DNA from: Candidatus Eiseniibacteriota bacterium
GTDB taxonomy: Bacteria > Eisenbacteria > RBG-16-71-46 > JABDJR01 > JAWXBZ01
DNA length: 25,123 nt
Reading direction: 5' to 3'
Assembly (NCBI GenBank): GCA_034440375.1
Contig: JAWXBZ010000162.1
Location: 1 to 25,123, forward strand
Position numbers and translations under genes: made by a program. The notes under the pieces were generated by a model, which was not told where the DNA came from, did not search any database, and saw only the letters and a list, made by a program, of their open reading frames with translations. The first letter of the stretch is position 1; the number at the start of each line of letters is the position of its first letter. Below are positions 1,386 to 20,921 of this stretch, piece after piece.

Positions 1386-1425
1386 TAAGTAGTTGTCGCC
1401 CAGACTACTCCCGATCGAGGCCCCA

Positions 1426-3210
1426 ATGCCCCAGCAAAGCCCAAGATGGCGTCGGCACGGCCTCTGGCTGGCTTTCCTGGCTGTTCTCGCGCCGCTTGGC
1501 ATCTTGCTGTTTCTGCAGTACCGAACGCTTCGGAGGCTCCAGGACGTCTCCCAGACGGCCCAGGCAGCGGTGTTTGACAACTACCTCGGGGCCATCGTCT
1601 CGGAGATCCGCTATTTCTACCTCACACGGGCCGAGACGGTCCTGAATGTCTCCTCGTCAGCCCTGGCCGCCCAGAACCTTGAGGAGATCCGGCGGGGGTG
1701 GCAACGGGCCGACCTGAACGGCGTGAAGCGGCTCTACCTCCTCACTGATGCCGCTCCGACAAACCAGCAACTCCTCATATTTGACCCCGTGGAGCAAGAT
1801 TTCACCACGGCCGTCGACTTGCGCGAATCGCAGTCGATTCTGCGGGGCGCCACGCTCTGGGTTACCGGCGTCTCGACCAGCGGCGACCAGAAGGATTCCC
1901 CCCGTCTTCGGGTGGACGAGCGGGACACCGATTTTCGCCAGATCATGAAGCCGATCCTCGATGACGAGGGGCAGGCCATCGGCATGGCCGGCATGGTCCT
2001 CGACGAGGATTACGTGAAAAGGGCCCTGCTACCCATGGCGATCCAGAACGCCCTGCCGACCTACTTTCAGGACGCCAGTCGGAACGACATCATGCTGCGG
2101 ATCCGGGATCTCGACGACCGGATCATCATGGGGACACGCCGGACGGACGTGGCGGGGCCGCCGATTCGACTCTCCTTTCCTTTTGTCTTTCGGGACTGGA
2201 CCCTCGAGATCCAGGGCGCCACACCGGCCCCGGCGCAGCTCCTTCAGGCCAATTTCGCCCTCTGGATCACGCTGTCGCTGCTCGTGGCGGGGGTCCTGGC
2301 CGTGGCCATCGCGCTGGCGTTGTCGGCGGCGGCCCGGACGATGCAGCTTTCCGAGATGAAAACGGACTTTGTGTCGAACGTCTCACATGAGTTACGCACG
2401 CCGGTGGCCTCGATCCGCGTCTTTGGCGAACTCCTTCGAGGGGGTCGGGTCCAATCGATGGAGAAGGTCCGGGAATATGGCGCGGCCATTGAATCTGAAA
2501 GCCGACGACTTTCTGATCTGATCGACAACGTCCTGGACTTTGCCCGCATCGAATCCGGCCAGAAGACCTATCGGCCAGTTTCGGCCGACTTGACGCCTCT
2601 CGTGGGCACCGTTCTCGATGCCTTCCGGGGCCGTCTGCACAACTCCGGGCACGATGTGGTGGTGGAAATGCCCCACGGACCGCTGCCGGCCGTGGACATC
2701 GATGCGGACGCCTTCGGATTGGCGTTGAACAATTTGCTCGATAATGCCGTCAAGTACTCAGGCGATTCCCGGAGGGTCTTTTTGCGCCTGCTTTCCAGTC
2801 CCGGTTCCGTCATCATTGAAGTTGAGGATGAGGGCATCGGGATCCCCGAAGAGGAGCAGGCCAAGATTTTCGAAAGATTTCACCGGGTGGGGACGGGTTC
2901 GGTGCACGACGTCAAGGGGAGCGGGCTTGGCCTTGCCATCGTGCAACACATCATGAAGGCTCACCATGGAAGGGTTGTGGTCGACAGCAAACCGGGACGG
3001 GGCAGCATCTTTCGCCTTCACTTCCCGGTTGCCCGAACACACCCTGCCACCGGGGCGAACACGGAAACCATGACCGCCCGCCGTGCCTCGGTGACTGAAG
3101 TTGACCACCAGATGACTGAAGTTGACCATCAGGTGACTGAAGTTGACCACCAGATGACTGAAGTCGACCGGTCGATGAGTGAGCCCGACCCCCGGGTGGG
3201 AAGAGGATGA
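1426..3210 (+). CDS. Membrane sensor histidine kinase (two TM segments, extracytoplasmic sensor, HisKA, HATPase_c)
   Basis: H-box [13 protein letters not shown]-box [11 protein letters not shown]1 VEDEGIGI, F-box IFERFHR, G2 GSGLGLAIV; two hydrophobic stretches; GAGG at 1417-1420 before ATG 1426 (the ORF track starts at 1393). Confidence 0.95.
3091..3174 (+). repeat. In-frame 21-bp tandem repeat, 4 copies, encoding (V/M)TEVDHQ
   Basis: gtgactgaagttgaccaccag / atgactgaagttgaccatcag / gtgactgaagttgaccaccag / atgactgaagtcgaccggtcg. Confidence 0.95.
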
Positions 3211-11472: not shown

Positions 11473-11520
11473 GACGGGCGGCATTATAGGCGGACACACG
11501 ATGTGACACTATATCCCCTG

Positions 11521-12168
11521 ATGAAAGATCCTCTCGTTGCCATTCTCCAGGGGGGCGTTCAGCGCCCCGGCTCCACGGCCGCCGAAGTAGCCACCATCGT
11601 GGCCGGTGATGCCGTCGCCATCGAACGGTTGGCTGGTCTGCTCGAAAACGCCGATCCCCGGGTGCGCGGCGGGGCCGCCGACGGCCTGGCGGCTCTTTCC
11701 GAGCGGGATCCCGCCGCCCTGGTGCCGCATGTCGAGGCGCTGGCTCATGCCCTGGCCCGAGAGGAGACGCAGACCCGGGTCGGCGCCCAACGAGCCCTGG
11801 CCGCCGTGGCGGAAGTGGCACCGACGGCACTCGAGGACGAGTTCGATCAGATTCGGCTGGGGGCTTTTGATCCGGCCAACAACGACCTGAGGCGGTGGGC
11901 CGCGATGGCCATCGGTCACTATGGAGCCGGCGATGACGTGCGGGGACGACGGGCTTTCCCCCACCTGGCCGAGGCAATCCGGCGGTTTCACGACCACCGC
12001 CGGCCGTCCGATCTCCTTTTCGGCGTGCTGCTCCTGGCCCGTGCCGAAACCAGCGACTGGCTGAAGAACGAAATATGGAAGTCCGCGCGCCGGCACGAAG
12101 CTCATCCGGATCCGGCCGTCCGGGAAAAGGTCGCCGAGATCGGTCGCCTGGTCCATCCGGTGTCATGA
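11521..12168 (+). CDS. HEAT/ARM-repeat protein
   Basis: Repeated D-P-x-V-R-x-x-A-A-x-x-L-type helices (DPRVRGGAADGL, TQTRVGAQRAL, NDLRRWAAMAI, DPAVREKVAE). The 5' part of the ORF-track call (11041-11520) is antisense to the S9 gene. Confidence 0.7.
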   Translation: MKDPLVAILQGGVQRPGSTAAEVATIVAGDAVAIERLAGLLENADPRVRGGAADGLAALSERDPAALVPHVEALAHALAREETQTRVGAQRALAAVAEVAPTALEDEFDQIRLGAFDPANNDLRRWAAMAIGHYGAGDDVRGRRAFPHLAEAIRRFHDHRRPSDLLFGVLLLARAETSDWLKNEIWKSARRHEAHPDPAVREKVAEIGRLVHPVS

Positions 12169-12443: not shown

Positions 12444-12501
12444 AGAATCCAATTTGGGCGGCCTTGGAAATTCTCATGGTCATCCGATCCATGGAGATGG
12501 C

Positions 12502-15333
12502 ATGAATTCGCGGACGTTCCTCGTCGTCGCCACTCTGGTGCTGGCCTTGATGCCGCCCCCCCTCCGGGCGGCTCCGCCTCCCGTGCCGAATCCGGTCTAC
12601 GCGGCCACCGGCTACTGGGAGGCGCCCTACGATTGGGTGACAACCGGGGCGCATGTCAGCCTTCTCCCGGGCACCGATTCGCACAGCCAGCTACTCTACT
12701 GGTATGACGGCACGACGGCCCGCGTCTGGAAGTGGAATCCAGGCGACGACCTCCACCCCGCGTCGCCGATCTTCCATCGCCCCTGTCCATCCACCGACAT
12801 TCATTGCGCGGGGATCTCGCTTCTGGCGACCGGGTGCGTTCTGTTGACTGGAGGCAACGATTACGGGCCGAACGGTCTCGACCACATCAACCTGTGGGAT
12901 CCATCCAGCCTGGGCTGGATCAATCAATCGAGCACGCTGATCGAGCCGCGCTGGTACCCGACCCAGACGACGCTGGCCGATGGACGGATCCTCGTCACTT
13001 CCGGAATCGTTTATCGTCAGATGGTGGCCTTCGGCGGCGCCGACGATGCCACGGTGCACGATGATCTGGCTCTCGCCGGACTCCGGGGCCTCGCGACCGA
13101 CGAATGGGTGCCGGCCGCCGCGCCCGGCCCACGACCCCCGCCGCGTGACGGGCACGTGGCTGTGTTTGATCGCTCGGTCACCACGAACTTTCCAGGCACC
13201 GGGTATTCGTACCTTCAACGCGTCGTCGTCTTCGGCGGGGCGGACGCGGGCGGCTCGGTACTCGGCGACGTCTGGGCGCTGACGCGCACCGAACTCTCGG
13301 ACTGGCGCTGGTCGATGCTGTCACCCGAGCCCGATCCCGTACACGGCTTTCCGGCGTCGCGCCGTGATCATCTGGCCGCCTACGATGGGCCCGATTCGAG
13401 CCTCGTCATCTTCGGCGGGAGGGACGGCGCCGGGCTGGCCCTGGGCGATGCCTGGAAGCTCTTCCTTCGGCGCGGCGCCCAGGGGAGGTGGTCGCGGCTC
13501 GCGCCGGCCGGGGGCGATATGACACTGCCGCGCTGGCTCGGTGCCGGCGCGTTCGATGCCTCCGGCCGCAGGCTGTTCGTATTCGGCGGGAGGGGCGACG
13601 GCGGCCTGCGAGCCGACGTCTGGCAACTGACGACGAACGCCTCACCCGCCTGGACGAAGCTCAATCCCTCGGGAACAGCACCGACCCCGCGTGAAGGAGC
13701 CGTGGCGGTATACGATGTCCCGGGGAATCGTCTCGTTATTTTCGGGGGACGGGCCGCGGGTCAGCTCCAATCGGACGCGCTGGGCGTGACGGTGGGGGGC
13801 AGCCCGGCCTGGAGCGCCATCACCTCAACGGCCGACCCAGTGGCCGGTCGGCCGTCCGCGCGCTGGCGGGCGTCCGCGGTGTACGACGACGAGCAGCGCC
13901 GCCTCGTCCTCTTCGGCGGCGATTCGACGCTGGCCGTGGGCTCGGGAGCCGCGGGCGATCTCTGGCATCTCGATTTTCGCGGTACGCCCGCCTGGAAGCG
14001 ACACCAGTCCGCCGGCCCCAATGGACCCCGGGCGGGCCACACGGCGGTGCTCGACCCCCGCCTGATCCATTCGGTCCTGCCGGAAATCGTCGATCCGATC
14101 ACCCTGGTCTCCACGCCGATCCCGACGGCCAGGCGATGGCAGAGCATTTATCCAGCCATGTTCCTGCTTCCGAGCGGCCGCCTGATCGACGCCGCGCCGG
14201 AATTCCAGACTCTCCTGCTCGATCTGGGAAGCGGTACATGGGTAACGCCGTCCTGGGCCATCAGCGGCGCGCTCGCCTTCAGTGCCGTCATGTACCACCC
14301 GGGTCGTATCCTGGCTTGCGGTGGAACCGGTAGCGCCGGCACCACGGCCGGGCGTTGGATCGATCTGTCGGTGAGCGAGACATCGACCGCCTGGCAACCG
14401 GTGACGGGGCTCGTTGCGAGGACCACACACAATCTGGTCGTCGTGCCCCACGGGGATGTTTACGTGATGGGCGGGGTGGGCTTGCGAAACCTCATGTCGA
14501 CGGCCGTCCGTCGTCCCCAGCGCTGGATACCGGGTACGGGATCCTTCGGCGACACGACGGAGCTGGCTCCCGACCCGGCGGTCCGCGACTACCACTCGAG
14601 CGTGGCGCTCCTGCCGGATGGGCGCATCCTTTCCTGCGGCGGAGACTTGAAGTCGACGCCGACCGACCGGAACAAGTACACCGCCACGATCTTCTGGCCC
14701 CCCTATCTCTTCGATGACGCCGGCGGGCTGGCGCCGCGGCCGGTCATGGCGAATGTACCGCCGTTACTCGGCTACGCTCATTCCTTCGCCGTGGAGTGTC
14801 CGCAGGCGGCGTCGATCGCGGTCATGACGCTCATCCGACCGGCCGCGACAACGCATGGCTTCGACCAGGAACAGCGCTATGTTCCGCTTTCCTTCTCCCA
14901 GTCGGGGCCCGGGATGCTCAACATAACCACTCCGCCAAGCCCCAACCACGCACCCCCGGGCTGGTATCTCCTGTTCGCGGTGGATGCCGACTCCGTGCCC
15001 TCGGTGGCCCAGTGGGTGCGGCTCGATGCGTCCGTCTCAGGTATTTTGGAGCCCGGGCGCCCCATGGTCCTCTCGGTGGCGCCGAATCCGGCACGCGGTT
15101 CGGTCGCTCTGACCTTCACGATGGCCGAGCCCGGCCCGCTCGACATCCGGATATTCGATGCCGCCGGCCGAATGACCCGGCACCTGTACGGGGGGATGCG
15201 CCCCGGCGGCCGCCAGAGCCTGACCTGGGATTTCCTGGATGACGCCGGCCGGTCGGTGGCTACCGGCATCTACTTCGCGCGGATCGAGTGTCCGGCAGGG
15301 TCGACGTCCGCCCGAATCGTCCGGGTGCGATAA
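12502..15333 (+). CDS. Secreted copper-radical oxidase (galactose/glyoxal oxidase, AA5-like) with inserted Kelch propeller, DUF1929 domain and FlgD-Ig-like C-terminal domain
   Basis: Signal peptide; DIHCAG (Cys codon 12805), RWYPT (Tyr 12955), RDYHS (Tyr/His 14590-14595), TTHGF (His 14854) match the galactose oxidase Cys-Tyr cofactor and Cu ligands; APPGWYLLF; terminal APNP...IFDAAGR...WD...GIYF. Confidence 0.88.
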   Translation: MNSRTFLVVATLVLALMPPPLRAAPPPVPNPVYAATGYWEAPYDWVTTGAHVSLLPGTDSHSQLLYWYDGTTARVWKWNPGDDLHPASPIFHRPCPSTDIHCAGISLLATGCVLLTGGNDYGPNGLDHINLWDPSSLGWINQSSTLIEPRWYPTQTTLADGRILVTSGIVYRQMVAFGGADDATVHDDLALAGLRGLATDEWVPAAAPGPRPPPRDGHVAVFDRSVTTNFPGTGYSYLQRVVVFGGADAGGSVLGDVWALTRTELSDWRWSMLSPEPDPVHGFPASRRDHLAAYDGPDSSLVIFGGRDGAGLALGDAWKLFLRRGAQGRWSRLAPAGGDMTLPRWLGAGAFDASGRRLFVFGGRGDGGLRADVWQLTTNASPAWTKLNPSGTAPTPREGAVAVYDVPGNRLVIFGGRAAGQLQSDALGVTVGGSPAWSAITSTADPVAGRPSARWRASAVYDDEQRRLVLFGGDSTLAVGSGAAGDLWHLDFRGTPAWKRHQSAGPNGPRAGHTAVLDPRLIHSVLPEIVDPITLVSTPIPTARRWQSIYPAMFLLPSGRLIDAAPEFQTLLLDLGSGTWVTPSWAISGALAFSAVMYHPGRILACGGTGSAGTTAGRWIDLSVSETSTAWQPVTGLVARTTHNLVVVPHGDVYVMGGVGLRNLMSTAVRRPQRWIPGTGSFGDTTELAPDPAVRDYHSSVALLPDGRILSCGGDLKSTPTDRNKYTATIFWPPYLFDDAGGLAPRPVMANVPPLLGYAHSFAVECPQAASIAVMTLIRPAATTHGFDQEQRYVPLSFSQSGPGMLNITTPPSPNHAPPGWYLLFAVDADSVPSVAQWVRLDASVSGILEPGRPMVLSVAPNPARGSVALTFTMAEPGPLDIRIFDAAGRMTRHLYGGMRPGGRQSLTWDFLDDAGRSVATGIYFARIECPAGSTSARIVRVR

Positions 15334-16668: not shown

Positions 16669-16947
16669 ACCTCGGGCGGAACGACGCGACCCTCCCGGGC
16701 CGCAACGGCTTTCACGGCATTAACGCGAGTTAGGAGAATAGCCCCGCGCTGGGCGGCGATCAATGGGCGAGAACATACGGAGTACGGGGCCTTACCGGCT
16801 GCGTAGCTCTGCTGAAACAGTCGCCAAAGTCCGGTGCTGGATCGACCAGGTAGTGCTTGACATGAAAGTCATGCCGGTTCAGTATTTTTCTCGACCATGC
16901 GGGATCCGAGCCGTCCCGCCCCTCAATCGCTACAGGAGGTCAGGAGC

Positions 16948-17868
16948 ATGCCCCGCCGGCTGCATCGGGTTCGCTCGTACGCCCAACACGTCGGACCGTC
17001 GGCCAGCGCGAATCCTCTGGTCAAGAACTGCGTGCTCCAAGGTGCCAATGCCTCCGGATCTCGCGGCATGTACGTCGAGCGAAACGTGACCGCGCTCGGC
17101 AACCACATCCACGACTTCAACGGCACCAACGGCCGCGGCATCCACTTCACGCTGTCGGACACGACGGTGACGCCCCTGGTGAACAATCCGGCGTCGCCGG
17201 ACACCAACCACACGATCATCACGAACTGCAAGATCGGCATCTTTTCCGATCACTTCTCCCGACCCAAGATCCGCGGGACGCGGATCAAGTCCTGCGGAAC
17301 GGCCATCCGGGTGGGGGCCATGGCCACCGCCGACATCGGCATCATCATGCCGCCCGGCGAGAGCAATGGAACCTGCGACGTGACCGGCGGCACCTACTTC
17401 GTCTACGTTGACATGCGGCTGGACACCGTTCCGGATGTGCTGGCCTACAACAACTGGTGGGGCACCAGTTCCAGTGCGGCGATCGCGGCCAAGATGATCG
17501 GGGAGGTCTTCTGGGATCCGTTCCTGACCCAGGATCCTTTCATAAGCCTGGCAAGGCGTTGGGGCGTCGAGGATGCCACGAACGGCCCCTCAAGGACCGT
17601 ACGCGTCGTTCCCAACCCGATGCGCTCCGGGGCTCGGCTGATCGCATCCTTGGAAGCGGCCGACGCCTCGGTCCGCTACCGTGTCTTCGACGTGGCCGGA
17701 CGGTTGATCAGAACGAGTGACGCGATGCCTTCCGACACAGTGGCTGCCGAGTGGGAGTGGGATGGCCGGGATGCCGCCGGGCGTCGAGTCCGAATCGGCA
17801 ATTATTTCGTGCAGCTTTCCGGCAGGTCCGGCGTCCTGGCCACGGGCCGGGCGATGGTGAGCGAGTGA
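16948..17868 (+). CDS. Right-handed beta-helix segment plus FlgD-Ig-like C-terminal domain; looks internally deleted
   Basis: Strong SD (AGGAGG/AGGAG) before ATG 16948; beta-helix-type repeats (VKNCVLQ, GNHIHD, IITNCKIGI, IKSCGTAI); AYNNWWG; terminal VPNP...VFDVAGR...WDGRD...GNYF; no hydrophobic signal h-region. Confidence 0.72.
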   Translation: MPRRLHRVRSYAQHVGPSASANPLVKNCVLQGANASGSRGMYVERNVTALGNHIHDFNGTNGRGIHFTLSDTTVTPLVNNPASPDTNHTIITNCKIGIFSDHFSRPKIRGTRIKSCGTAIRVGAMATADIGIIMPPGESNGTCDVTGGTYFVYVDMRLDTVPDVLAYNNWWGTSSSAAIAAKMIGEVFWDPFLTQDPFISLARRWGVEDATNGPSRTVRVVPNPMRSGARLIASLEAADASVRYRVFDVAGRLIRTSDAMPSDTVAAEWEWDGRDAAGRRVRIGNYFVQLSGRSGVLATGRAMVSE

Positions 17869-17878
17869 GGAGGGAGAC

Positions 17879-18394
17879 ATGAAGCTGCTGGTTGCGTTGA
17901 CACTCGGGCTGGTTCTGCTCGCGCCTCGTGACCTCTGCGCCTCGGCTATCGAGTGCCCGGTTGCCTCGGCCCAGGGCCGGAACGGCCCGGATGGCCGTGA
18001 GTTCATTCTGACGTTTCAGATCCCCGTGGGCCTTTCCGGTGGCGACATCGCAGGTGGGTTTCTACTGTTCGAGGGTGGTTTTCCCGATGGCATCGGTGTC
18101 TCGGCGGAAGTGATGAGCACCCCAACACCCGCAGCCGGAGCCCTTGAGGTGGCAACCTTGGTCGATGGTGTGCGAAATGGAACGATTGCCGTCGCGGAGT
18201 CCGTCGATGGCGCGTTCGAGTGTGGCTTCAAAGAAGTCGCATTCACCTCGATGGTCGATGGACAGGCGATAGAGATCCTGGTCCGCCCACTTTCACAGAG
18301 CCGGACACCGACCGCGGGAGTAGAACCTTACCTGGCTACGGCCCGACTCGTCCTGATATGCACCGATGAACCCGGAGCTCAGATCACCCGATGA
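17879..18394 (+). CDS. Secreted hypothetical protein (171 aa)
   Basis: GAGGAGG SD; clear signal peptide MKLLVALTLGLVLLAPRDLCA. Confidence 0.75.
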   Translation: MKLLVALTLGLVLLAPRDLCASAIECPVASAQGRNGPDGREFILTFQIPVGLSGGDIAGGFLLFEGGFPDGIGVSAEVMSTPTPAAGALEVATLVDGVRNGTIAVAESVDGAFECGFKEVAFTSMVDGQAIEILVRPLSQSRTPTAGVEPYLATARLVLICTDEPGAQITR

Positions 18395-18446
18395 CACCCT
18401 TCGCAGGCAGGTCTTGATGGATAACGTCGTGCACCGGACGCGGACC

Positions 18447-20921
18447 ATGCTTGGGCGGTGCCAAGTGAGACTTGCGGGCACTTTGTCGTTCCCACTTCTC
18501 TACCTGTTGCTTGTCGCAGCGGCTCCAAGAGCCGGCGAGCCGATAATCAGCTTTGGGCCCGAGGCCGCCATGCCCGGCGAGATCTTCAGCTATGGAGAGT
18601 ACCGCCACAAGCTCGAACACTCGCCCCAGGTGGTGTTTGACGGTGATCGTGGTATCGCCGTGTGGCATCTGGTGACCGGTGGTGCGGATGCCAACTGGGC
18701 ATACACTATGAATGGTGGTGCGACCTGGAACCGAGGAACCCAGCTCGATGGCATCGACCCCCACGACCAGTTTCACGGACCGCCTACGATCGTGGCAGAC
18801 GGCGACGGGCGTTTTCGCCTCGTTGCCCTCTACTTCATGGATTCTGTTTTCAGAACCCCTGATCGATACATCGGACCCTTGGCTTTTGTCCCAATCCGCC
18901 TCGAGGAGGATCAGGCGACAAACGGCCCTTGGCAATCCATTCCATATCAAGAGGGCACTTGGGCCACACAGTTACTTCGATCGGAGAGACTACCGGGTTC
19001 AGGTGATGTGGTCATGACTTACACCTATGTAACGGACTCGCCTGCGGGCCACTTGAATACCCAGGTGTTCTTCGCCTCCCTCCGGGATTCCGTGTGGAAT
19101 CAACCGATCGCCATTAGCAACCTTGCGTCTCAAGGTGGTCGGCCTTTGGCTGGACCGGACGGAGAATTGTACGTCGTCTGGAAGGATGTCGTCGCGGCCA
19201 AGATGGTGCTCCGCCGCTCAGACGATGGCGGCAGAAGTTTCGGACCCGAAATCGTGATTGGCGACGTCTACGACAATGAAACCAAAGTCCCGGGAAACTA
19301 TAGCTCAGAAGACGCCCTCTATCTACCGACCGACTATTGTGAACCGGCCACCTTGAACTTCCCCTCCGTCGCGATTGACAAGAGTCGTGGCCCCAATCGC
19401 GGAACGCTCTACGCCGTCTGGACTGACAGGCTTACGGGTGTGATCGATCCGGCAACGCGCGTTGTCTCGGAGGTTGAGCCAAACAACGTGAGTGCACAGG
19501 CCACGCCGATCGATGTTGGCGTTGATATTACCGGAAGGCATGTCTTTTCGGAGAGCGGTGGTGGTGATGGGGCGGATCTGTTCGCGTTCGTGGGAGCGGC
19601 CGGAACAACCATTTGGATTGACGGAATGGTCACGGGAGGTGGGGGGCCGTACCCCAAGTTTGGTGCGCCGATTGCTGTCTCCGGCTGCTTCGATGGCTCA
19701 GGCTCACACAAATTCACCGCCGACAAATCGTTCGGAATAAGCCGTGAACAACAACAGCCGCCCTTGGTTTTCACGATGCCTTCCGATGGGCGATACGAGT
19801 TGTCAATTGGGAGTCGATACGAGAGCTATAGCTACCGAATGAGGGTGCGTCGATTGAATCCAGGTCAAGGGTCAGTTGCCCGGGACAGTCGTGACGTCGT
19901 ACTGCTGGCCTCGCGTGACGGCGGGAAGACGTGGTCGCCAAAGGTGCTCGTCAATGATGATCCGCCCCTGTTCGACAATTATCTTCCAGAGGTGGAGGTT
20001 GACGATCTAGGCGTCGTTCACGTGACGTGGTTCGATCGCCGTAACGATCGGGCCTGCGGCGTCGATTACGATGTATTCTGGACCTGTTCTCTCGACGGTG
20101 GCCGAAGTTTTCTCGCGTCACGCCAAGTAAATGACTCGACTAATGTCGTCGGGAAGCCGATCCTCAATCGCCCCGGCGGGGAGACGTCGCCAAACTTCGG
20201 TCGCTTCCTTAATCTGTCGCCGGGCGGTTCCGGCGGAGGAATCTACGCCTCCTGGCCTCAGGCTGAGCCCCTGGTGACGTGGCAGGATCTCTACACAACC
20301 ACCGACCACGACATCCACGGCCGGCGCATCATCGTGACGCCCGATGTTGCTGTTGCGGAACTGCGGGCCATGGCGAACGCGTGGAACGTGCTCCTGGAGT
20401 GGCACGTGGCGGCGCCGGACTTTGTGTGGAAGTTTGAGATTCTGCGGGCCGGGGGGCCGGTTGGCGACCGCGTGGTCGTCGGTACTGTGGATGGGCAGTC
20501 GGGTACCGGCGGGATGTTCCGTTTCACGGATCCGGTTGGTGGAGCGGGCGGCGAATTCCAGTATCAGGTTCGGACGATCCTGACCGACGAGCGGGCTTTA
20601 ATGAGTAAACCATTGACGGTATCAGCGGCGGCGGTGCCGGCGGCGCCGGTGGTGAGGCCGGTGGCGCCGAATCCGTCAGGAAGCCCGGTTGACTTCGTGA
20701 TCGACTCACCGGCGTTTAATGACGCGACGGTTTGCGTGTTTGATGCCCGGGGAGCGGAGGTTCGCGTGCTTCATCGGGGACCGTTGGTGGTTGGAACGAG
20801 CCGGTTTACCTGGGATGGCCGGAACGGCGTGGGTAATCCAGTTCCATCCGGCATCTACTTTGCCACTGTCATCACCGGGGAGACTCGCCATTCCCGTAAG
20901 TTTGTTCGTGTGACAGATTGA
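18447..20921 (+). CDS. Secreted BNR/Asp-box (sialidase-fold) propeller protein with inserted PPC-like domain, FN3-like domain and FlgD-Ig-like C-terminal domain
   Basis: Asp boxes TMNGGATW, SDDGGRSF, SRDGGKTW, SLDGGRSF; EVEPNN...DLFAF...GRYEL module; terminal APNP...VFDARG...WDGRN...SGIYF. Start uncertain (18417 or 18447). Confidence 0.82.
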   Translation: MLGRCQVRLAGTLSFPLLYLLLVAAAPRAGEPIISFGPEAAMPGEIFSYGEYRHKLEHSPQVVFDGDRGIAVWHLVTGGADANWAYTMNGGATWNRGTQLDGIDPHDQFHGPPTIVADGDGRFRLVALYFMDSVFRTPDRYIGPLAFVPIRLEEDQATNGPWQSIPYQEGTWATQLLRSERLPGSGDVVMTYTYVTDSPAGHLNTQVFFASLRDSVWNQPIAISNLASQGGRPLAGPDGELYVVWKDVVAAKMVLRRSDDGGRSFGPEIVIGDVYDNETKVPGNYSSEDALYLPTDYCEPATLNFPSVAIDKSRGPNRGTLYAVWTDRLTGVIDPATRVVSEVEPNNVSAQATPIDVGVDITGRHVFSESGGGDGADLFAFVGAAGTTIWIDGMVTGGGGPYPKFGAPIAVSGCFDGSGSHKFTADKSFGISREQQQPPLVFTMPSDGRYELSIGSRYESYSYRMRVRRLNPGQGSVARDSRDVVLLASRDGGKTWSPKVLVNDDPPLFDNYLPEVEVDDLGVVHVTWFDRRNDRACGVDYDVFWTCSLDGGRSFLASRQVNDSTNVVGKPILNRPGGETSPNFGRFLNLSPGGSGGGIYASWPQAEPLVTWQDLYTTTDHDIHGRRIIVTPDVAVAELRAMANAWNVLLEWHVAAPDFVWKFEILRAGGPVGDRVVVGTVDGQSGTGGMFRFTDPVGGAGGEFQYQVRTILTDERALMSKPLTVSAAAVPAAPVVRPVAPNPSGSPVDFVIDSPAFNDATVCVFDARGAEVRVLHRGPLVVGTSRFTWDGRNGVGNPVPSGIYFATVITGETRHSRKFVRVTD

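Follow-up and report, generated by a model that had tools for sequence, protein, structure and literature searches.

Copper-radical oxidases serve industry as cofactor-free biocatalysts, and the loops around their copper set specificity. In one bacterial example, GlxA of Streptomyces lividans (PDB 4UNM), a whole domain is inserted in the propeller and shields the copper, according to the accessible parts of PMC11611005; this domain 2 spans amino acids (aa) 143-260 (accessible parts of PMC11022532). Here, we consider a gene on a 25,123-nucleotide contig of the uncultured phylum Candidatus (Ca.) Eisenbacteria (JAWXBZ010000162.1, the whole of which we call the window), whose product appears to be an oxidase propeller interrupted by a second propeller, a six-blade Kelch ring. 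How does an enzyme accommodate one ring within another, and what might the inner ring be for? Our reading, to which we give about one chance in two, is that this protein is an exported GlxA-type copper-radical oxidase in which a rigid Kelch ring forms a wall or part-lid at the copper and, by its outer face, keeps the enzyme on a larger target. The gene and its parts are listed below (positions are those of the window; GO, galactose oxidase; ORF, open reading frame; T9SS, type IX secretion system). Counts out of 103 refer here and throughout to the distinct nested proteins among the 122 rows gathered by searching proteins three times, scanning genome contigs and searching the phylum.

12502..15333 (+): nested copper-radical oxidase gene (P0001), 943 aa, an ORF
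12493-12496 (+): GGAG 5′ of the oxidase ATG, from the sequence
12502..12570 (+): likely signal peptide, aa 1-23, by eye; similar hydrophobic N-termini in most relatives
12607..13005 (+): seven-blade oxidase propeller, first part, aa 36-168, running to strand b of the Tyr-bearing blade
12802..12807 (+): H101 and cofactor C102 (C102 at 12805; equivalent of GO Cys228), by alignment
12952..12957 (+): W151-Y152, likely stacking Trp and cofactor Tyr (Y152 at 12955; equivalent of GO Tyr272)
13006..14079 (+): insert of 358 aa (169-526), a short two-stranded stalk and a six-blade Kelch ring as modelled
13015-14061 (+): Kelch ring proper, about aa 172-520
13285..13287 (+): R262, Arg on the underside of blade 2, candidate interface or substrate residue, conserved in 77/103
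14080..14706 (+): remainder of the oxidase propeller, aa 527-735
14590..14595 (+): Y697 (axial ligand, 14590) and H698 (14593), equivalents of GO Tyr495 and His496, by alignment
14737..15021 (+): E-set domain of the galactose-oxidase type, aa 746-840; it contains H785 (14854; equivalent of GO His581)
15076..15321 (+): T9SS type A sorting domain or FlgD-Ig-like tail, aa 859-940 (TIGR04183, 24.6 bits; cut-off 23)

Judged by sequence and predicted fold, the window protein is a copper-radical oxidase that is neither a GlxA nor an AA5_2 galactose oxidase. With GlxA it shares the bacterial extracellular oxidase fold (Z 45.6, 2.4 Å over 443 residues), the same first-shell residues and a Trp directly before the cofactor Tyr. 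The two part ways over the extra domain: the GlxA insert, about 118 aa long and a third the size, precedes Tyr289, whereas the 358-aa ring follows Tyr152, and the spacing of 50 residues from C102 to Y152 leaves no domain inserted before the cofactor Tyr. The GlxA equivalog model NF052501 gives the window protein 133.8 bits against a cut-off of 800, and whereas GlxA is membrane-anchored and coupled to cslA, the window protein has a T9SS-type tail. The galactose oxidases of Fusarium (1GOF, AA5_2) and Pseudarthrobacter (9G43; Z 46.6) have the same seven-blade propeller with E-set domain and the same C/Y/Y/H/H set; unlike them, the window protein has no N-terminal CBM32, carries its insert in place of the Trp290 loop and has W546 at the position of the galactose-binding Arg330 (mostly hydrophobic in the family, with Arg in 4/53). 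The Fusarium aldehyde oxidase FgrAldOx (9N3U, AA5_1; Z 40.2) shares the fold and the W-Y second shell, but at 23% structural identity, and it is a fungal enzyme with WSC domains and without an inserted propeller.

The nearest relatives of the host, that is, of the oxidase portion, are insert-less AA5-like proteins of Gemmatimonadota, Acidobacteriota, Actinomycetota and other bacteria, which have the five ligands and the W-Y pair in 81-82/82 cases; we know of none that has been characterised. What sets them apart is the loop, of 10 or 11 residues in 56 of the 62 where it could be measured, and their place on the other side of the tree split described below. The ring itself resembles Kelch domains of the KLHDC2/LZTR1 type and the secreted proteins of Ca. 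Eisenbacteria that consist of Kelch repeats only (PF24681 repeat, 171 bits; six-blade ring; 28-44% identity over the matched stretch). Those, however, are stand-alone proteins, mostly of about 12 repeats, or eukaryotic adaptors, whereas the ring in the window is nested in an enzyme. We found no description of such a nested architecture in the openly accessible literature that we searched (a passing mention is possible) and no characterised enzyme with this layout, as the original prediction had supposed; it is a conserved and, it appears, undescribed variant of the copper-radical oxidases.

That the ring is nested in the oxidase, and not placed beside it, we regard as close to certain on the predicted structures. 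The Pfam matches fall as the original prediction expected, with Glyoxal_oxid_N (97-169) and the galactose-oxidase E-set domain (746-840) on either side of a KLHDC2-type Kelch within the insert, and with FlgD-Ig at 868-925; PF07250 and PF09118 are both above cut-off, and the PF13860 match in the tail stays below. When the protein is compared with solved structures by phmmer, the galactose oxidase match comes in two pieces, residues 97-168 to GO 224-289 and residues 590-841 to GO 382-638, and because with a family profile the second piece begins as early as GO residue 294, only GO residues of about 289-293, the Trp290 loop, have been replaced. Between G168 and P527 lie 358 residues, against about 10 in the loop of bacterial relatives, with six FGG motifs (aa 177, 244, 304, 361, 414 and 471), which bears out the earlier claim of some 350 residues of another repeat type. 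Across the relatives, the lengths of this loop form a bimodal distribution, with 76 plain proteins at 2-26 residues and 93 nested ones at 353-457.

An AlphaFold2 model of aa 24-845, built with 53 sequences (predicted local distance difference test, pLDDT, 93.9; predicted template-modelling score, pTM, 0.91), says the same. Both flanks jointly superimpose on 1gof (Z 44.2, 2.1 Å, 436 residues, model range 9-820), and this backbone match across the two flanks would place the ligand residues together on one site; the insert (model 145-498) superimposes on six-blade Kelch rings (Keap1 and SAKe6; Z 37, 1.7-2.1 Å, 281-288 residues). A member of another subclade, at 31% identity, is modelled equally well (pLDDT 93.1, pTM 0.91; 1gof Z 46.2, Kelch Z 34-35). 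In both models, the orientation of the insert is predicted to be fixed, since the pTM of 0.91 compares with about 0.6 that a rough calculation would expect of two independent rings. The original prediction had the insert start in mid-blade, end with the missing strand and so close with adjacent termini. It does start at RQMVAFGG and end at AVLDPR, and in the Kelch-only consensus DPVRDRMVVFGG both points fall on the a-b turn. The Kelch ring of Keap1 closes with adjacent termini, and because Keap1 aligns almost end to end (285 of 288 residues to model 145-495, Z 37.1), this looks like ordinary Kelch closure and no special permutation. The PDB matches listed hold no solved structure with a propeller-in-propeller design. 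A complex prediction, with the insert and the two host halves as separate chains, scored 0.00 and gave no contacts, and we have used it neither way. Two trivial explanations were also set aside: a tandem layout or gene fusion is ruled out by the split homology and the two models, and an assembly chimera or chance by the 103 distinct homologues and the bimodal loop.

Is this still an enzyme? We think it rather probable from the sequence that it is. The five cofactor residues predicted for it (C102, Y152, Y697, H698 and H785) are all where they were said to be, and all five are intact in 84/103 nested members. The members that depart from this pattern do so in a few ways. In 11/103, the cofactor Cys has become Glu (P0156, P0280, P0284-P0286, P0325, L112, P0205, P0268, P0270 and P0273) and the cofactor Tyr is Glu, Ala or Ser, with the axial Tyr and the histidines retained (one row lacks the last His position), a combination of residues that suggests a non-radical metal site. 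In 7/103, the Cys-Tyr pair is intact and the axial Tyr is replaced, by Asp in five (P0264, P0266, L052, L064 and L129), Asn in one (L100) and His in one (P0237). One nested member has lost two ligand residues.

The second shell required some revision of what had been claimed. The His that the original prediction saw before the cofactor Cys is real (H101), but it is a minor subclade trait: Phe is usual (83/103), and His, found in 9/103 nested members and 3/82 insert-less relatives, is ruled out as a family hallmark. The insert does sit in the loop that holds Trp290 in galactose oxidase, as predicted; what does not follow is that a stacking Trp was lost to it. In GlxA (W288-Y289) and FgrAldOx (W509-Y510), a Trp beside the cofactor Tyr takes the role of Trp290 (accessible parts of PMC13094651 and PMC11611005). 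Position 151 is Trp in 80/103 nested members (Trp, Tyr or Phe in 98/103), a Trp precedes the cofactor Tyr in 82/82 insert-less relatives, and 45 of the 62 insert-less loops measured have no aromatic residue at all, so that by alignment the stacking Trp is likely W151, of the GlxA type. With the stacking Trp next to the cofactor Tyr instead, the loop was likely free to take an insertion; and because W151 directly precedes Y152, chemistry like that of GlxA or the aldehyde oxidases is more likely than that of galactose oxidase. The residue aligned with Trp290 is V170 (in the family, most commonly Arg), and the next, Y171 at the base of the stalk, which is Tyr, Phe, His or Trp in 81/103, may be a second-shell residue.

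Which way does the ring face? The model has long strands at aa 169-177 and 514-523, which suggests a two-stranded stalk, and the stalk arms are nearly constant across the 103 proteins, at 9 residues (range 9-10) and 15 residues (range 14-25). As modelled, the linker is on the catalytic face of the oxidase. By convention, the a-b turn of a Kelch ring lies on its underside. Because the insert is joined at that turn, its underside, and not its usual ligand-binding face, is likely turned to the enzyme, with the binding face outward. On the underside, the position of R262 is Arg in 77/103 nested members and in 0.5% of 2263 Kelch-only repeats, and it is the exception in an insert that is otherwise conserved mainly at residues of the repeat consensus; positions putatively on the top face vary widely. 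Covariation, measured as mutual information over the 103 rows (effective number 85), was dominated by invariant columns and is uninformative on the interface.

The mechanism that we propose borrows its chemistry from known copper-radical oxidases. Copper would be bound by Y152 (cross-linked to C102), Y697, H698 and H785, with W151 stacked on the cofactor, and a small alcohol or aldehyde group would undergo two-electron oxidation with release of H2O2. The Kelch ring, on its short stalk of fixed length, would limit entry to the copper; its underside (blades 1-2, with R262) would meet the enzyme, and, going by strand topology, its usual binding face would look outward, onto a larger target. That the insert shapes access to the copper in some way seems to us slightly better than an even bet, and the domain inserted in GlxA supports the lid as a precedent for shielding copper (PMC11611005, accessible parts). 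Several observations pull the other way, and they should be faced together. With an untwisted stalk, the ring would be centred farther out than the active site. Blades 3 and 5 also carry Arg at the position equivalent to R262 (in 12/103 and 20/103), the insert is less conserved than its host (mean pairwise identity 30% against 38%), and no conserved insert surface was found in the 103 members beyond the repeat-consensus residues and R262. Metal ligands are altered in 19/103 nested members, the tail clears its T9SS cut-off only narrowly, and 17 loci, compared by crude ORF clustering with 20 neighbours scanned against Pfam, revealed no shared operon that would hint at a substrate.

Might the ring, then, do nothing more than target or anchor an oxidase whose active site stands open next to it, in the manner of the CBM32, WSC and PAN modules of fungal enzymes? 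It might, although we doubt it. Appended binding modules are common in copper-radical oxidases, and deleting WSC left activity unchanged (PMC11611005, accessible parts); the same organisms attach this type of Kelch to many secreted proteins, and both the outward binding face that topology predicts and the variable top of the ring would suit a tether. A pure tether, however, needs neither insertion in a loop nor stalk arms of fixed length, and the blade-specific R262, with an insert kept in all 103 members, suggests contact with the host, whereas terminal add-ons vary freely (relatives place a beta-helix, fn3 or nothing before the T9SS tail). Improbable, in our view, is a ring that docks a protein partner, either the one-electron activator by which the radical is regenerated or a protein or glycoprotein substrate at the cell surface. 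The nearest solved folds of the insert are indeed peptide-binding Kelch domains, and copper-radical oxidases depend on an activator, for which modelling gives a docking position around the active site (PMC12951238, accessible parts). In 6 of the 17 loci, an unannotated secreted family adjoins the gene, usually divergently upstream; yet the locus in the window has no such neighbour, no peroxidase or constant partner turned up among the neighbours scanned, and no conserved pocket was found in the insert.

Still more improbable is a chiefly non-catalytic role, as a scaffold at the surface or a binder of metal, with the oxidase site decaying across the family. The Cys-to-Glu members that have also lost the Tyr, the members with a changed axial Tyr and the up to four paralogues seen per genome would all fit with decay. 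Against this, the majority that keep all five residues, the window protein among them, do so at a median identity to the query of 34%, and the residues that come in by substitution are repeatedly specific ones that bind metal (Glu and Asp), which is unlike random loss. One can go further than the wall or part-lid that we prefer, and tentatively we do: the Kelch ring might be a substrate-selecting lid that has shifted radical chemistry to a new class of substrate, for instance a glycan at the surface or a group carried on a protein, with new metal sites arising along the way (Glu/Glu/Tyr/His/His without a radical, or an axial Asp), in a phylum-specific radiation of oxidases whose chemistry is undescribed. 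We would not bet on it.

The 103 distinct proteins make up a large lineage-specific family, which the original prediction overlooked, as it did the T9SS-type tail and the members with altered metal ligands. In a host-only FastTree, the nested and plain proteins split on one branch (84 against 75 rows, support 100), a quick host-only IQ-TREE run gives the same split (24 against 35 rows, SH-aLRT 100), and in neither tree does an insert-less member fall within the nested clade. This is consistent with a single origin but does not prove it, because the trees are unrooted and without fungal and GlxA rows, and their rows were chosen by similarity to the query. In the phylum of the window, at least 32 of 151 genomes have a match that spans both flanks and the insert; there are at least 57 such matches, and at least 14 genomes have more than one (these are lower bounds, four candidates having been scored per genome). 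The spanning matches lie in four of the 17 families of the phylum, mostly in family f3 (26/60), and among those listed, none is from families f5, f9, f13 or f2. Thirty of the loci were extracted; the nested layout was confirmed in 29 of them, and an internal stop interrupts one. Among the best 80 loci of the genome-contig scan, every nested one with a named phylum belongs to Ca. Eisenbacteria and all complete proteins that come from other named phyla are plain, and so the nested family is probably confined to this one uncultured phylum. Two oddities belong here: four nested homologues (L006, L007, L010 and L091) are split by a frameshift or stop, through sequencing error or as pseudogenes, and one protein (P0006) has about 50 more residues inserted in its Kelch ring, at the last c-d loop.

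Where did the ring come from? We would suppose one in-frame insertion of a six-repeat unit, donated by the Kelch-only secreted proteins of the lineage, into a hairpin that in this lineage did not bear the stacking Trp. The insert-less proteins of the same phylum (seven) and the genome's own copy group among other phyla. That copy (P0121; L001:2417-4195 (-), on contig G000:C195) groups with Gemmatimonadota proteins and is ruled out as the parent; its contig ranks 9th lowest in tetranucleotide likeness among 64 of similar size, and the copy is a transfer or sits on a misbinned contig.

Export would proceed by Sec and then by a T9SS-like system, as we infer from the tail and from the content of the genome, which encodes SprA, PorV and a PorU-like C25 peptidase, all over cut-off (G000:C34:46383-47600 and C196:27637-30818), with the C25 peptidase gene just upstream of a PorV gene; 134 ORFs of the genome end in a T9SS-like tail. 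The literature that we searched held no published case of type IX secretion in Eisenbacteria. Around the gene, nothing like the GlxA operon was seen in the loci clustered and scanned, and neither a cellulose synthase nor a peroxidase is present among 14 neighbours in the window and 20 selected neighbours of relatives. The unannotated family that recurs beside nested oxidases consists of secreted repeat proteins of about 650-800 aa with a T9SS tail (for example, L128:5675-7681 (-); also at L125, L126, L129, L009 and L052), and five of them that were scanned had no Pfam match. BNR-repeat proteins stand beside the oxidase in 5 of the 17 loci; the one in the window (18366-20921 (+)) is likely secreted and has a T9SS-type tail, and in four other loci relatives of it are found near a nested oxidase. 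Upstream of it on the same strand are a likely secreted beta-helix protein with a FlgD-like tail (16897-17868 (+)) and a likely secreted, unannotated protein of 171 aa (17879-18394 (+)). Divergent from the oxidase is an ORF of 214 aa (11509-12156 (-)) with no Pfam or NCBIfam match and, by eye, helical repeats. Farther off, a histidine kinase ORF (1393-3210) ends in about four tandem copies of the peptide TEVDHQM/V (3111-3190 (+)).

For those who work with copper-radical oxidases, a natural domain of 358 residues in a loop of the catalytic face shows a site tolerant of engineering, and the family offers about 100 candidate enzymes. With its natural Cys-to-Glu, Tyr-to-Glu and axial Tyr-to-Asp members, what each ligand does can be tested within a single scaffold. 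For those who think about how proteins come to be, it is a clear case of a propeller within a propeller, and its likely donor family is present in the same genomes. And for an uncultured phylum, it points to oxidative chemistry outside the cell and to a T9SS-like route by which the enzymes would get there.

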